Positions 155 through 23,901 of a DNA stretch of 26,512 nt are shown here, piece by piece; position 1 is the first letter of the stretch; the number at the start of each line of letters is the position of its first letter. The stretch covers positions 1-26,512 of IMG/VR virus record IMGVR_UViG_2698536335_000001. One strand, given 5' to 3'. The notes beneath the pieces are model-generated. The model made no database searches and was not told where the DNA came from. It saw nothing but the letters and a program-made list of their open reading frames with translations. Position numbers and translations under genes: made by a program. The DNA is from a virus. Lineage: Duplodnaviria > Heunggongvirae > Uroviricota > Caudoviricetes.

Positions 155-334
155 ATGAATAAAATGGTGAGTAATATTATCATTTCTTTTATTTTATTTG
201 TTACTATAGTGGTGTTATTGTTTTTTATTCTTGAGATAAAAGATTTAATTATCAATTACTATGTCTTTTTATTAATACCTGCATTATGCGTACTGGCTGC
301 ATTCAAGATTATTAAGGAAAGAGTAAATGTTTGA
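155..334 (+). CDS. small hydrophobic membrane peptide, 59 aa (MNKMVSNIIISFILFVTIVVLLFFILEIKDLIINYYVFLLIPALCVLAAFKIIKERVNV); absent from the ORF track
   Basis: ATG at 155 preceded by AAGAGG (143-148); two hydrophobic helices; TGA at 332-334 overlaps the ATG (327) of the next gene. Confidence 0.45.
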   Translation: MNKMVSNIIISFILFVTIVVLLFFILEIKDLIINYYVFLLIPALCVLAAFKIIKERVNV

Positions 335-1409
335 AACATATTTAACGTATAACACAATTCTTTTGTGTGGCGTATTAATATCATCAATCATTTGTTTTAT
401 TAATAGTGGTAAAGGCGTGGTTTACTTGCTATTATTTATGGCCCTTTTTATACCTGCCGCCATTCGGTACGGAGTTGGTTTAGATTTCTTTAATTATGTT
501 GATATTTTTAACAACCCAGAATATTACCAAGGCCAAATAGAAATAGGATTTTATTTAATTGTAAAGATTCTATCAACCACTGGATTTGGGTATCAAGCAT
601 TATTTGTATTATGCTCAGCGTTAACTGTAATCTTCTTTATGCTTTCAATAGAAAGAGATTCAGCATGGGCTTCTGTATTGATTTTCATATGCACTCTTTA
701 CCTGTCATCCTATTGTTTGTTAAGACAAGCTTTAGCGGTTAGTATTCTGATGTATAGTTGTAGACTATGGATTAATGATAAAAAATTAAATTCTATTATC
801 ATTATGCTGATTGCATGCTCAATGCATTACTCTGCCATACTTTTTGCTCCTTTATTGATAGCGTCCAGTGTATTCAGGCTTACTACGCTTCGTACATTAT
901 TTATAATGGGGTTTATTTCTATATTTGTTTTTGCGCTTCATGGTGTTGATTTGATATTTAATAATGAAATGTTTTTAAATTCAAAATATGGCTCATATGT
1001 TTCTTCTGGTTTCAATAAAGAAACTCAAATCGGAACCGGAGTTGGGGTTATAATACAAATATTAATTCCTGTATCCGTTGCTTTAATGGCGAATAGAATT
1101 TTAGAAATCAATAATAGATACAACATTGTGATATTCACAACGACTGCATTTTTTGCATCTTATCTACTTGCGACTCAAGTATATATATTTGGAAGAATGG
1201 CAGATGTTTTCTCTTTTTCTTTGGTTTTTGCTGCGCCTATTCTTCTTAGGTCAGCAAAAAGCAATATATCAAAGATAGTTTTTGTTGGTATGATTTGTCT
1301 TTACGTTCCTGTCATGCAGGCCACAATAGCAAATAATAACTTTAAAGCCAACGAACTTTCTGGTTCTGGGCTTGGGATATCTCCTTATAAAACTGTTTTT
1401 GATAAATAG
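327..1409 (+). CDS. polytopic membrane protein, EpsG/Wzy-like polysaccharide (O-antigen) polymerase candidate
   Basis: 360 aa with about ten hydrophobic segments; RYGVGLDFFNY resembles the EpsG-family R-x-x-G-x-D-x-x-x-Y signature (from memory); AT-rich codon usage; AAGGA RBS at 314-318. Confidence 0.65.
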   Translation: MFETYLTYNTILLCGVLISSIICFINSGKGVVYLLLFMALFIPAAIRYGVGLDFFNYVDIFNNPEYYQGQIEIGFYLIVKILSTTGFGYQALFVLCSALTVIFFMLSIERDSAWASVLIFICTLYLSSYCLLRQALAVSILMYSCRLWINDKKLNSIIIMLIACSMHYSAILFAPLLIASSVFRLTTLRTLFIMGFISIFVFALHGVDLIFNNEMFLNSKYGSYVSSGFNKETQIGTGVGVIIQILIPVSVALMANRILEINNRYNIVIFTTTAFFASYLLATQVYIFGRMADVFSFSLVFAAPILLRSAKSNISKIVFVGMICLYVPVMQATIANNNFKANELSGSGLGISPYKTVFDK

Positions 1410-3920: not shown

Positions 3921-4178
3921 ATGCAGCAGTATCACTATCCACTGGAAGACGGATTTACCGAAAGGATTCACACGCCGGGAGGCGTCAGGTCACTGGTGGA
4001 GGGATCGCACTTGATGAAATTACTCCGGGATCTCGATAAGGATGGATTTAATGTCGATGGCCCACTTGCCGAACTGACTGCACTGATTAACTACGTCACC
4101 AGCTCACAGATGTCTATGCAGGATCTGCAAACACATCTCGACTATTGTGCCAAACAATTACGAAAACAAATCACATAA
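3921..4178 (+). CDS. SOS-regulated hypothetical protein, 85 aa, acidic (MQQYHYPLEDGFTERIHTPGG...)
   Basis: ATG at 3921 with GGAGA RBS (3909-3913); the track start at 3903 is a TTG extension; LexA box immediately upstream; convergent with the virion operon. Confidence 0.6.
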   Translation: MQQYHYPLEDGFTERIHTPGGVRSLVEGSHLMKLLRDLDKDGFNVDGPLAELTALINYVTSSQMSMQDLQTHLDYCAKQLRKQIT

Positions 4179-4200
4179 AGAAAAGGCCGCGAAAGCGGCC
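4171..4200 (-). terminator. rho-independent terminator ending the minus-strand ejection-protein transcript
   Basis: ggccgc-gaaa-gcggcc hairpin (4185-4200) followed on the minus strand by TTTTCTTTAT (4171-4184). Confidence 0.55.
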
Positions 4201-4220
4201 TGTGACATGTCACGCTCACG

Positions 4221-4361
4221 TTATGACAAGCCTATGTACCCTGCTACACCAGATAATATCAAAATAACTGCAACAGCAAATTCGCCATCGTCAATGATAC
4301 ATTTACGGTTCATAACGCCAAGTGCAACAAGCGCAAACACAACAAGAATAAAAGCAATCAT
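4221..4361 (-). CDS. small hydrophobic protein, 46 aa (MIAFILVVFALVALGVMNRKCIIDDGEFAVAVILILSGVAGYIGLS); absent from the ORF track
   Basis: ATG at 4361 preceded by AAGGA, directly after the TAA of the upstream gene; two hydrophobic segments; followed 20 nt later by the terminator at 4171-4200. Confidence 0.35.
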   Translation of the reverse strand: MIAFILVVFALVALGVMNRKCIIDDGEFAVAVILILSGVAGYIGLS

Positions 4362-4370
4362 TTCTCATCC

Positions 4371-6845
4371 TTATTGCGGAGTGACATCCTGTGGTCGCCA
4401 CCAGTATGTCTGGTTAAACTCTTTCTTCGAACGTTGCTCCATTTTATGCAAATAACCTGGTGAAAAATACTCCTGCATCTGGTTAAAGATCATGTGATCG
4501 AGAGCCGCCTTTAAGTACCAGAGATTCGCACCTGGCATCAGACCTTTCCCCAGCTTAACCAGATCACCACCAGTCTGCTCATTCTTCCCTTCCACAGCAT
4601 TTAACGGTATACCCTGAGCAATCTTCACTACGTCATCAACCAGACCAGCTACCGGGCCAAGCATCGACGCCAGCGCGCCGCTTCCGTACCTAGTGTGATC
4701 TGACAATAAAAAGTCACCGTAAAGGCCAAGACCACCACCTTTCAGTAGAGCACCAAGCCAAAATTTAGCAGCATCTTCTCCTGTCATCTCGCGAGGATTA
4801 CGACCAGACGCAAGGTCGTTAAGTTGCTGCGACAAAGCGCCAAGAATGGTCGTACTGGCAATAAACGTCGCAATATATGCCGCACGCCCACCAGCAGACG
4901 GCATACCCATAGCGCGTGACCAGTGACGCATAACAACCGAGATAGGGAACGATTTAAACAGGAAAACACTTCTCGTTAATTCACCTTTCCATGTTCCACG
5001 CTGAATACCAGAACCGGTTATCAGTTGCTCACGTGCTCCCGGTGTAATAACAGCCATATCAATTTCTTCAGTTACGGCACCGAGCAGTTTACGCATTGCC
5101 TCAAATTTCACGCGTTCAGGTTCACCAAGATGTTTAACTGCTGAATCAGGGATACGCATAATGCTTTCCGGTGTCAGCATCGTATTATTACCGTTCCCCC
5201 AGTCCTCCTGTTGCGCCAGCTTCCATACGCTCCAGTCTGTGTCAGTAATCCCTTTGCTTTTCAGGATACGAAAATCAGAGTCATCGAGGCTACGAAGGTC
5301 TGGTGTCCGTGACACTACTTCTCCCAGGCTTCCCATCATGGTTACGCCATAGGCGCGCTTGTGCGCATCTGACCATGCTGTAAGCCCACTGGCACGCATT
5401 ACCGCCGTTGCCGCCCAACGAGACACTGACGGCCCCATATTATCCATCGCCCATCGGTTAACGCTGCCAAGTAGAGATTCCATCGCCAGACCAGCGCGGC
5501 GCGCCCGCGCAAGTTCTGTACGGTTCGTTGGGTCCATAGCTTCAAGCTGGTTGCGGAATAACTGGTTCATTGGAAGGTTGGTAACCTTCGCAGACAGATA
5601 CATGGTTCCAAGATCAGAGAACGATGACAGCAACGCGGATCCGAGTCTGCTGGCAACCAGCCAGTTGCGGATATTGTCAGACCATCGCGCGATGTGCGGA
5701 TTCGCTACAGGCTGTGTCTTTCCGGAAATAAAGTTGTACAGATTCTCTGTGTTGTTCGCCAGCCGCTCGACTTTACCGGTTTTACTCGGGTTAGCTGTTG
5801 CCGTTTCTGCCTTCACCTGATCAAGAAGAGAGCGGAAAACATGATCGGGGTTTGGGCCATATGTTTCCACCAGTGCAATATCTTTACTGATACCTTCCAG
5901 GTGACCGACCATGATTTCCCATAGAGAGCGATCGCCATAAAGTTGCTGATATTGCAGATAGGAATCTGCATCTTTGAAATGTATCTGTCGTGATGCATTA
6001 CCACGGTTAGCACGTGCGCCGGAAATTCGCATTCCGGTATCAGTAAGCTTATTCAGCCCACCAGTAGCGATCGTGTTATAAGCCTCTCCAAGAAATGCAG
6101 ACAACTCAGCATCGTTCATCAGTTGTCCATCGGCTCGGGTATAATATTTGCGATCCAGCTTACCTATAACATCGCTAACCCACTTATCCTTTGATACCGC
6201 CCCAACCTTTTCCATAGAATGATGTTGAGGGATCCCCCAGTTTTCGAGATAGCCAATGTCCCCACCAGCATCATTAAACCGGCGGCGCAGTAGCTCTGTC
6301 ACTTCTCTCCACGCCTTAGCACCTTTTCTTGCTTTAGCATTGCCCGTATTTTGCCCTCGCATTTCATATACCAGGTCACGCACGCCAGCTTCATCTTCAA
6401 ACAGGCCAAAAAAGCGAGGATCAACTGCTTCAAATGCCTCCTGCAATTGACTCAATGCATAATCACGAGTGGCTTTTGTTCTGGACTCAACAGAGAGGAA
6501 ATTCGATTTACCGTCTGCATTAAAAGCAATAGTACGGTTAAGAGCGCCAAGTTTCCCATCAGCCCCTTGATAGCTATTGATAAATTTATCCAATCTCTGA
6601 CGTGCGGCTATAGTGAGGGCCACACGACGTTTCTTTAATGCCGCTTCTCGCTGTAATTCTTCAGATGCCAATTGTGCTGCACGATATAGCCGCTCTGATT
6701 CGGAAAGTTGTCTCCACGACATCGGGTCATCACGAGCAATGGAGCGCATATTTCGATAAATGCGGTCTTCAATGTTCTGTATTTCTCGCGCCGTTAACGT
6801 GCGCTGCGCCGCCTGCTGGACCGCTTGTATACATTCCTGTCTCAT
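4371..6845 (-). CDS. internal virion / ejection protein (T7 gp16-position), 824 aa
   Basis: Large protein in the position between tail tubular genes and tail fibre, as in T7-like gene order; RBS present. Confidence 0.75.
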   Translation of the reverse strand: MRQECIQAVQQAAQRTLTAREIQNIEDRIYRNMRSIARDDPMSWRQLSESERLYRAAQLASEELQREAALKKRRVALTIAARQRLDKFINSYQGADGKLGALNRTIAFNADGKSNFLSVESRTKATRDYALSQLQEAFEAVDPRFFGLFEDEAGVRDLVYEMRGQNTGNAKARKGAKAWREVTELLRRRFNDAGGDIGYLENWGIPQHHSMEKVGAVSKDKWVSDVIGKLDRKYYTRADGQLMNDAELSAFLGEAYNTIATGGLNKLTDTGMRISGARANRGNASRQIHFKDADSYLQYQQLYGDRSLWEIMVGHLEGISKDIALVETYGPNPDHVFRSLLDQVKAETATANPSKTGKVERLANNTENLYNFISGKTQPVANPHIARWSDNIRNWLVASRLGSALLSSFSDLGTMYLSAKVTNLPMNQLFRNQLEAMDPTNRTELARARRAGLAMESLLGSVNRWAMDNMGPSVSRWAATAVMRASGLTAWSDAHKRAYGVTMMGSLGEVVSRTPDLRSLDDSDFRILKSKGITDTDWSVWKLAQQEDWGNGNNTMLTPESIMRIPDSAVKHLGEPERVKFEAMRKLLGAVTEEIDMAVITPGAREQLITGSGIQRGTWKGELTRSVFLFKSFPISVVMRHWSRAMGMPSAGGRAAYIATFIASTTILGALSQQLNDLASGRNPREMTGEDAAKFWLGALLKGGGLGLYGDFLLSDHTRYGSGALASMLGPVAGLVDDVVKIAQGIPLNAVEGKNEQTGGDLVKLGKGLMPGANLWYLKAALDHMIFNQMQEYFSPGYLHKMEQRSKKEFNQTYWWRPQDVTPQ

Positions 6846-21434: not shown

Positions 21435-21454
21435 CACCGTGACATATCACAAAC

Positions 21455-23667: not shown

Positions 23668-23901
23668 TCAAAGTCCATCAAATTCATCGTAAAAACTCTC
23701 GTCAAGATACCCTTCCCATTTACCGCGAATGAAAATTACATCCTCGCCGCAAGGGTGCTGACTGTCGATAACTATATCCCTCCTGGCGCAACCATACTTA
23801 TGCATGAGAAATTTAACCTCTTTCGGAAAATTTGCTGAATTATCTCTCATATCTTCAAGGTCGTAGCGTATTTTTGGCATAACACCTTCGTGACATGTCA
23901 C
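23668..23901 (-). CDS. hypothetical protein, 70-77 aa
   Basis: GTG at 23901 overlaps the upstream TGA (GTGA) or ATG at 23880; no recognisable motif. Confidence 0.5.
   Translation of the reverse strand: MTCHEGVMPKIRYDLEDMRDNSANFPKEVKFLMHKYGCARRDIVIDSQHPCGEDVIFIRGKWEGYLDESFYDEFDGL

Follow-up and report, generated by a model that had tools for sequence, protein, structure and literature searches.

A predicted two-helix membrane protein encoded in an exchangeable slot behind the internal virion protein D gene of a Uetakevirus prophage

The small gene and its locus

The 26,512-nucleotide stretch of DNA analysed here (IMG/VR record IMGVR_UViG_2698536335_000001, positions 1 to 26,512; hereafter the window) belongs to an epsilon15/phiV10-like temperate podovirus prophage of the genus Uetakevirus. 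The minus strand carries a 46-codon open reading frame (ORF), called here the small ORF, between the gene of IVP-D (internal virion protein D), which is the final large gene of the late structural operon, and the terminator of that operon. We describe the small ORF as one of several alternative occupants of a slot for envelope-protein genes, and weigh whether its product may act on DNA entry by other phages. The locus is composed of the following elements, with proteins measured in amino acids (aa).

4175..4201, minus strand: rho-independent terminator at which late structural transcription ends, with its stem at 4201-4184 and its T-tract at 4183-4175
4202..4213, no strand: perfect 12-base-pair palindrome GTGACATGTCAC, the right edge of the exchangeable slot
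4221..4361, minus strand: gene of the predicted 46-aa two-helix membrane protein (cassette type A), from the ORF call and a family match
4368..4372, minus strand: AAGGA ribosome-binding site, from the sequence, overlapping the TAA of the 824-aa gene
4371..6845, minus strand: gene of the 824-aa internal virion (ejection) protein D, from the ORF and homology to epsilon15 gp17

The small ORF starts with an ATG at 4361, its frame ends at 4221, and its product is MIAFILVVFALVALGVMNRKCIIDDGEFAVAVILILSGVAGYIGLS. The TAA stop codon of the IVP-D gene occupies positions 4373-4371, leaving a gap of 9 nucleotides (nt) to the small ORF. The AAGGA motif (4372-4368) lies 6 nt 5' of the ATG, and the minus strand of positions 4000-4600 contains CCGCAATAAGGATGAGAAATGATTGCT. 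The terminator stem has 7 base pairs, six of them G-C, and is followed by TTTTCTTT. The folded 3' region has a free energy of -18.6 kcal/mol (z = -2.55). The frame, the ribosome-binding site and their position after the TAA of the 824-aa gene, as described in the first-pass annotation, are all present in the sequence. The terminator is likewise found only 3' of the small ORF, at 4201-4175, and the ORF thus falls within the layout of the operon transcript.

A standard scan found no minus-strand promoter upstream of the small ORF. A relaxed scan of five relatives revealed no conserved sigma-70 promoter within 400 nt upstream, although a weak or atypical promoter could escape a consensus scan. 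The 3' end of the IVP-D gene has no conservation spike at synonymous sites, where variation is only slightly below the gene average. Neither the relaxed scan nor the synonymous-site profile thus showed anything conserved that would point to a promoter embedded in the 3' end of the IVP-D gene. Because of the 9-nt gap to the IVP-D stop codon and the absence of a detected upstream promoter, the simplest reading is that the small ORF closes the late structural transcript as its last cistron.

An end-to-end alignment relates the 824-aa protein to epsilon15 gp17 (E = 4e-109), which is a homolog of T7 gp16, internal virion protein D (Hardies et al., PMC4819975), and the earlier label of an ejection-protein operon is fair in this respect. 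The region is 100% identical to a prophage of Escherichia coli 2013C-4538, 98% identical to phages phiV10, PAS61 and O157 typing phages 9 and 10, and shares approximately 80% identity with the SPN1S group of Salmonella phages. The small ORF had been reported as unannotated, which is wrong for the public record of the identical DNA: in RefSeq NZ_CP027582.1 it is WP_000559990.1. Its phiV10 counterpart, 97.8% identical at the protein level, is phiV10p21 (YP_512275), annotated as 'putative integral membrane protein, two predicted transmembrane helices', and its SPN1S counterpart is SPN1S_0020. PHROG 7892, a family listed with function unknown, matches positions 1-46 of the 46 residues (E = 5.5e-33). 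Some records, such as E2348/69 and SPNIS2, leave the small ORF without annotation. The gene is already catalogued as a hypothetical protein, and its detection is not news. A literature search for PhiV10p21, SPN1S_0020, epsilon15p18, WP_000559990 and phrog_7892 turned up no mention.

The 46-aa protein contains two hydrophobic blocks, formed according to hydropathy by residues 2-17 and 28-45 and separated by the polar loop NRKCIIDDGE, which agrees with the initial description of two hydrophobic segments around a short charged loop. AlphaFold2, supplied with a 30-sequence alignment, predicts helices of residues 2-19 and 25-43 that form a helical hairpin (mean predicted local distance difference test score of 92). 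The grand average of hydropathy (GRAVY) is 1.78. The protein ends with GVAGYIGLS and has no charged residue beyond E27. The polar loop, with the family motif NRKxIIxDGEF, and the C-terminal GVAGYxG are the most conserved parts of the family. The G+C content of the small ORF is 38.3%, compared with 49-51% in the flanking genes. The predicted 46-residue helical hairpin should insert into the cytoplasmic membrane.

The slot, its cassettes and the palindrome

Sequence comparison of relatives identifies the interval from the IVP-D stop codon, its left edge, to the palindrome and terminator as an exchangeable recombination slot, which holds at least six interchangeable cassettes for envelope proteins. 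The contents of the slot are listed below (TM, transmembrane).

Cassette A: 46-aa two-helix ORF, PHROG 7892
Cassette B: two-helix ORF of 57 aa that starts with GTG or TTG, then a 98-aa multi-TM protein, PHROG 3075
Cassette C: 41-aa TM peptide and a 126-aa lipoprotein with an LVGC lipobox, PHROG 3716
Epsilon15 cassette (type D): gp18 (64 aa), which has two hydrophobic segments and overlaps the gp17 stop with its start
Citrobacter werkmanii relative: only a 102-aa secreted protein with a cleavable signal peptide
Pectobacterium relative: only a 159-aa lipoprotein
Kluyvera relative: type-B small ORF and a different 92-aa protein with two TM segments

Complete E. coli genomes that share this 3' end of the IVP-D gene number 316; of these, type A was found in 60, type B in 216 and type C in 34, and the three types together fill the slot in about 98% of E. 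coli Uetakevirus prophages. The IMG/VR set comprised 80 loci in which the C-terminal 209 residues of IVP-D are at least 98% identical to those of the window: 30 are of type A, 41 of type B and 9 of type C, and none has an empty slot. The cassettes begin 8-20 nt past the IVP-D stop codon. All of them have a G+C content of 38-43%, compared with 49-53% in the flanking structural genes, and all alternative cassettes encode envelope-targeted proteins. No homology is detectable among types A, B and D. Kinship of the 46-aa family with epsilon15 gp18 or the type-B 57-aa ORF was rejected at hhalign probabilities of 0.3% and 1.9%, and weak BLASTP matches between cassette peptides obtained without composition correction are unreliable for TM peptides.

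The position of the slot is between the last gene for an ejection protein and that for the tailspike, beside Ant/Bro-N antirepressor genes. In the more distant relatives BcepC6B and BPP-1, there is no gene between those of IVP-D and the tail fibre. In the divergent podovirus L106, a member of the 46-aa family follows a gene of a 92-aa two-TM protein after a 54-nt spacer. Because this member follows another gene, the small gene appears to be a module of its own and not an appendage of the IVP-D gene. Type-A family members co-occur with Oac, GtrABC, MBOAT, Acyl_transf_3 and EpsG conversion modules and with unrelated tailspikes, which indicates that the family is independent of the O-antigen type. 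The searchable literature, which did not include the epsilon15 genome paper, holds no mention of the slot context or of its palindrome boundary.

The right edge of the slot is formed by the palindrome GTGACATGTCAC. In a set of 17 Uetakevirus loci, an exact copy was present at the slot end in all 17, whatever the cassette, and in every Uetakevirus locus examined except that of Pectobacterium the slot ends with an exact or one-mismatch copy followed by the terminator. In epsilon15, the stop codon of the unrelated gp18 falls inside the palindrome. By our own estimate, chance would give an exact 12-mer roughly 0.002 times per window. The window, phiV10 and epsilon15 each have three copies per genome, exact or with one mismatch, at homologous places.

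Window: 4202-4213, 21439-21450 and 23890-23901
L020: 2262, 19493 and 39101
Epsilon15: 2142, 19517 and 39612

At one place, upstream of terS, the palindrome overlaps or lies just past the stop codon of a gp49/p55-like 'transcriptional regulator'; at another, between terL and the convergent p03 gene, it adjoins the terminator; the third place is between the slot cassette and the late-operon terminator. Each copy in epsilon15 and phiV10 is within about 35 nt of a rho-independent terminator. The palindrome is without annotation in all records inspected. It may be a binding site of a late regulator or a signal that modulates termination.

The first 9 kb of the window contain 78 ORFs of at least 30 aa, and the length of the small ORF alone is therefore not significant. 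Phages and prophages of E. coli, Salmonella, Citrobacter and Hafnia share the frame, with its length and position unchanged. Pairwise ratios of nonsynonymous to synonymous substitution (dN/dS) are 0.14-0.36 at dS of 0.26-0.48, and 20 distinct alleles have 15, 8 and 30 variable sites at the first, second and third codon positions. The ribosome-binding site TAAGGATG and its spacing are conserved in six relatives at approximately 80% DNA identity. The terminator, annotated as such in phiV10 and epsilon15, has a stem that is identical among relatives and a variable loop. The family has very few members: a search among 5.8 billion proteins yielded 42 family clusters at no less than 74% identity. 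A profile search of 1.84 billion representatives gave five clusters only, of which the two that were checked are both in the same phage context. The two most distant family members, 42-49% identical, keep the same motif and are again found in this phage context.

Conservation of the frame in relatives, a check that had been put forward with the initial description, was assessed in the 30 type-A copies of the IMG/VR loci: 25 are intact and 5 are frameshifted. The frameshifts belong to one four-locus lineage with an altered C-terminus and to one locus with a 1-nt deletion. Among the four frameshifted loci that were checked, IVP-D is intact in all and the gp19-like gene in three. The substitution pattern and the conserved frame indicate that the small ORF is a genuine gene under purifying selection, and we regard it as very probably a real accessory membrane-protein gene.

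Several observations concern the locus and its relatives. In the Salmonella prophage L007 (5955-5975), the IVP-D gene ends six codons early owing to a change of CAG to TAG, 28 nt before the small ORF. Because of this spacing, the ribosome-binding site need not overlap the stop codon. A convergent 85-aa gene (3921-4178, plus strand) encodes a soluble homolog of epsilon15 gp19 and, in most relatives, is kept beyond the terminator. The epsilon15 annotation places a repressor-binding site between gp19 and the divergently oriented tailspike gene. The type-B 57-aa ORF is positioned at about 2318-2491 in L016-L019 and at 2845-3018 in L005, on the minus strand in each, with the ribosome-binding site AAGGAAG. 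It is intact in 37 of 37 type-B IMG/VR loci with an exact palindrome copy at the slot end, and is without annotation in the RefSeq and phage records examined.

The 92-aa protein (3413-3691 in L102 and 4668-4946 in L106) has two hydrophobic segments and a charged tail, ...SLW(I/L)KRKKLEE(E/K)KRI.... It is common to the slot of the Kluyvera Uetakevirus and to a very divergent podovirus, where it precedes a 45-aa member of the small-protein family. The 92-aa protein, whose architecture is holin-like, is another mobile module of the slot.

The left end of the window carries a candidate conversion module. A 59-aa ORF with two hydrophobic segments, beginning MNKMVSNIIISFILF... (155-334, plus strand), shares 8 nt with the start of a gene of the EpsG family (Wzy-like polymerase; 327-1409, plus strand; Pfam E = 5.6e-47). 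The G+C contents of the two are 24% and 32%. They are probably a serotype-conversion pair because the layout matches that of epsilon15, in which gp22, an alpha-polymerase inhibitor with two TM domains, is followed by the gp21 polymerase. The 59-aa ORF has weak similarity to epsilon15 gp22 (E = 3.5e-4 without composition correction) and one homolog that is 81% identical, and it is without annotation in the RefSeq record of the identical DNA. Positions 1-39 of the window, next to the conversion module, belong to a frameshifted IS1 transposase pseudogene. Since the left window end runs into this pseudogene, the prophage is interrupted where relatives carry a cassette of holin, endolysin and spanin genes.

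Candidate functions of the hairpin

The small protein is outside the conserved virion and lysis machinery. The exchangeable slot, its envelope-only products, their low G+C content and patchy distribution, and the location between ejection-protein and tailspike genes, beside antirepressor genes, together point to an accessory gene that acts on the cell envelope. Most characterised envelope-acting accessory genes of phages block the adsorption or DNA entry of other phages, and superinfection exclusion is known from P22 SieA, T4 Imm and HK97 gp15. We tentatively favour, ahead of the alternatives below, that the hairpin may block DNA entry by other phages, a reading in which membrane location, time of action and function are all inferred. 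The small ORF would be transcribed as the last cistron of the internal-virion-protein operon of the temperate podovirus and translated from the strong Shine-Dalgarno sequence that overlaps the IVP-D stop codon. The 46-residue hairpin would then insert into the inner membrane of the phage-carrying cell and interfere with the step at which incoming phages deliver their DNA across that membrane.

Several points weigh against exclusion. The 46-aa protein has no similarity to SieA, as BLASTP gave no alignment at E <= 100, and PADLOC defence models matched none of the cassette proteins. IVP-D is nearly identical among carriers of different cassettes, so that nothing suggests an arms race of the cassette with the ejection protein. 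Hydrophobic codon usage accounts for part of the low G+C content. Expression during lysogeny, when exclusion would pay most, is unsupported: P22 sieA is convergent, has its own promoter and is expressed in lysogens, whereas the small ORF is co-directional with the late operon and has no conserved promoter.

A broader version of exclusion, which we hold to be unlikely, is that exclusion factors acting on the envelope gather in the slot, as a hotspot not described before, and that late-operon read-through, in place of a prophage promoter, drives their expression. With only two helices, the hairpin would then be a minimal blocker of the inner-membrane DNA channel of T7-gp16 type, and the palindrome a part of the read-through control. 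If this were true, no smaller injection inhibitor would be known, and the hairpin would give access to how the podovirus ejectosome crosses the inner membrane. The locus offers a natural swap experiment, with three envelope-targeted cassettes on a nearly identical ejection-protein gene, and the pattern of swaps points to accessory functions at the cell envelope, possibly on phage DNA entry. The phage group is in use for O157 typing and Salmonella biocontrol. A hairpin that blocks injection would be a very small probe for how podovirus DNA passes the inner membrane; otherwise, it would be one more small phage membrane protein.

Rather unlikely, in our assessment, is an envelope-directed accessory factor for lysogenic conversion or fitness that has no action on phages. 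The hairpin would in this case bind a transporter, sensor kinase, protease or other inner-membrane protein of the host and modulate it, which is a common mode of action among small membrane proteins of bacteria. The evidence of cassette exchange applies equally to such a host factor, and the NRKxIIxDGEF loop, as the most conserved part of the family, suggests a specific binding partner. The presence of the family in four host genera with different O-antigens would imply a target conserved among Enterobacteriaceae. However, no promoter of its own was found and expression in the lysogen is unsupported, and the 46-aa family is confined to this phage context, with no chromosomal occurrence other than in prophages. 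The same independence from conversion module and tailspike type led us to reject a serotype-specific inhibitor of O-antigen polymerase.

Two alternatives that we consider improbable tie the hairpin to lysis or to genome ejection. As a late peptide, it could tune holin triggering in the manner of an antiholin or pro-holin, or weaken the membrane as infection ends. The late-operon layout fits such a modulator of lysis timing, as does the small, hydrophobic, two-helix product, which is like class II holins and pinholins, and the T7 holin gene is placed after the tail-fibre gene. The first-pass annotation had named a holin-like peptide among its candidates. Every relative examined nevertheless has a separate, complete lysis cassette beyond the tailspike and conversion genes, composed of two holin-family genes (Phage_holin_8 and Phage_holin_3_7), a GH19 endolysin and Rz/Rz1 spanins. 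The 46-aa protein lacks a charged C-terminal tail and has no holin match in Pfam or PHROG, its hits there being PHROG 7892 and a sole sub-threshold Pfam match, DUF5367. On these three grounds a holin was rejected. The replacement of the small ORF in the slot by non-homologous cassettes, including lipoproteins, also speaks against a role in lysis timing.

As a helper of the ejection apparatus, the hairpin could be packaged and ejected with IVP-D to seed the inner-membrane channel, or act within the producing cell as a chaperone or immunity factor against premature membrane insertion of IVP-D. The gene directly follows that of IVP-D in most Uetakeviruses examined, with a ribosome-binding site overlapping the stop codon that would allow translational coupling; none of the 80 loci has an empty slot, and the slots of epsilon15, type A and type B all begin with a small hairpin. 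Against this, the IVP-D C-terminus is at least 98% identical among carriers of non-homologous cassettes, the slot contains only a secreted protein in C. werkmanii and only a lipoprotein in Pectobacterium, and BcepC6B and BPP-1 have no gene there. In addition, the divergent member in L106 follows a different gene after its 54-nt spacer, and frameshifted copies of the small ORF stand beside intact IVP-D. A structural or ejected partner of IVP-D is disfavoured by the non-homologous replacement on this backbone and by the exported alternatives. The small virion membrane component suggested at first reading fares no better, since the unrelated proteins in the slot include Sec/Lol-exported lipoproteins and a secreted protein, which are unfit as capsid cargo.

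A membrane toxin, either type I toxin-like or an abortive-infection peptide that depolarises the membrane, had also been suggested and is very improbable. Hok/TisB-type peptides are of similar size and hydrophobicity. The 46-aa protein, however, has two helices instead of one and a strong, unoccluded Shine-Dalgarno sequence in a late operon, and matches no PADLOC or Pfam model and no toxin family. No plus-strand promoter-like site for an antisense RNA was found across positions 4150-4400, in a scan that included no RNA-family search for an antisense gene. A non-functional filler, that is, a chance ORF in the spacer before the terminator, is hardly credible: ORFs of this length are common by chance and 5 of 30 type-A copies are frameshifted, but dN/dS and the third-position bias, the frame, length and ribosome-binding site kept across four host genera, and the motif retained at 42-49% identity argue against it.

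Comparison with known systems

The closest counterparts of the small ORF, namely phiV10 gp21, SPN1S_0020, WP_000559990.1 and PHROG 7892, are the same gene family, 85-100% identical and of equal length. The phiV10 gp21 family shares the position between the 824-aa gene and the terminator, and there is no difference from the ORF of the window. Epsilon15 gp18 (64 aa) and the 57-aa ORF of cassette B are likewise small, have two hydrophobic segments, and are placed after the IVP-D gene and before the same palindrome and terminator, but have no detectable homology to the 46-aa family.

The proposed exclusion function has its nearest positional parallel in P22, in which sieA is a neighbour of ant, placed between gene 16 and the tailspike gene, 9, and SieA escape mutations map to the ejection proteins gp16 and gp20 (PMC10883804). 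Both loci place an inner-membrane protein gene, predicted for the small ORF, between the last ejection-protein gene and the tailspike gene and beside an antirepressor gene, and both genes are patchily present with several very divergent types (PMC10883804). P22 SieA has 162-164 aa and three predicted TM segments, whereas the small ORF encodes 46 aa and two helices. The SieA motif FxRYPxEAxxFNK is absent from the 46-aa protein, which by sequence is not a member of the SieA family.

Lambdoid morons, such as HK97 gp15, are extra genes between genes that are adjacent in related phages. The small ORF resembles them as an extra gene, since BcepC6B and BPP-1 have the IVP-D gene followed directly by the tail fibre gene, and in its lower G+C content (38.3% vs 49-51%) and downstream factor-independent terminator. 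Classic morons have their own promoter, whereas none was found for the small ORF. Class II holins, pinholins and T7 gp17.5 are, like the product of the small ORF, small late membrane proteins, and class II holins have two TM helices. The small ORF differs from them in its uncharged tail, its location outside the lysis cassette and the lack of a holin family match. Epsilon15 gp22, annotated with two TM domains, and D3 Iap, both of which inhibit O-antigen polymerase, are also small hydrophobic inner-membrane phage peptides. However, they adjoin a phage O-antigen polymerase gene, a place that in the window is held by the ORF at 155-334.

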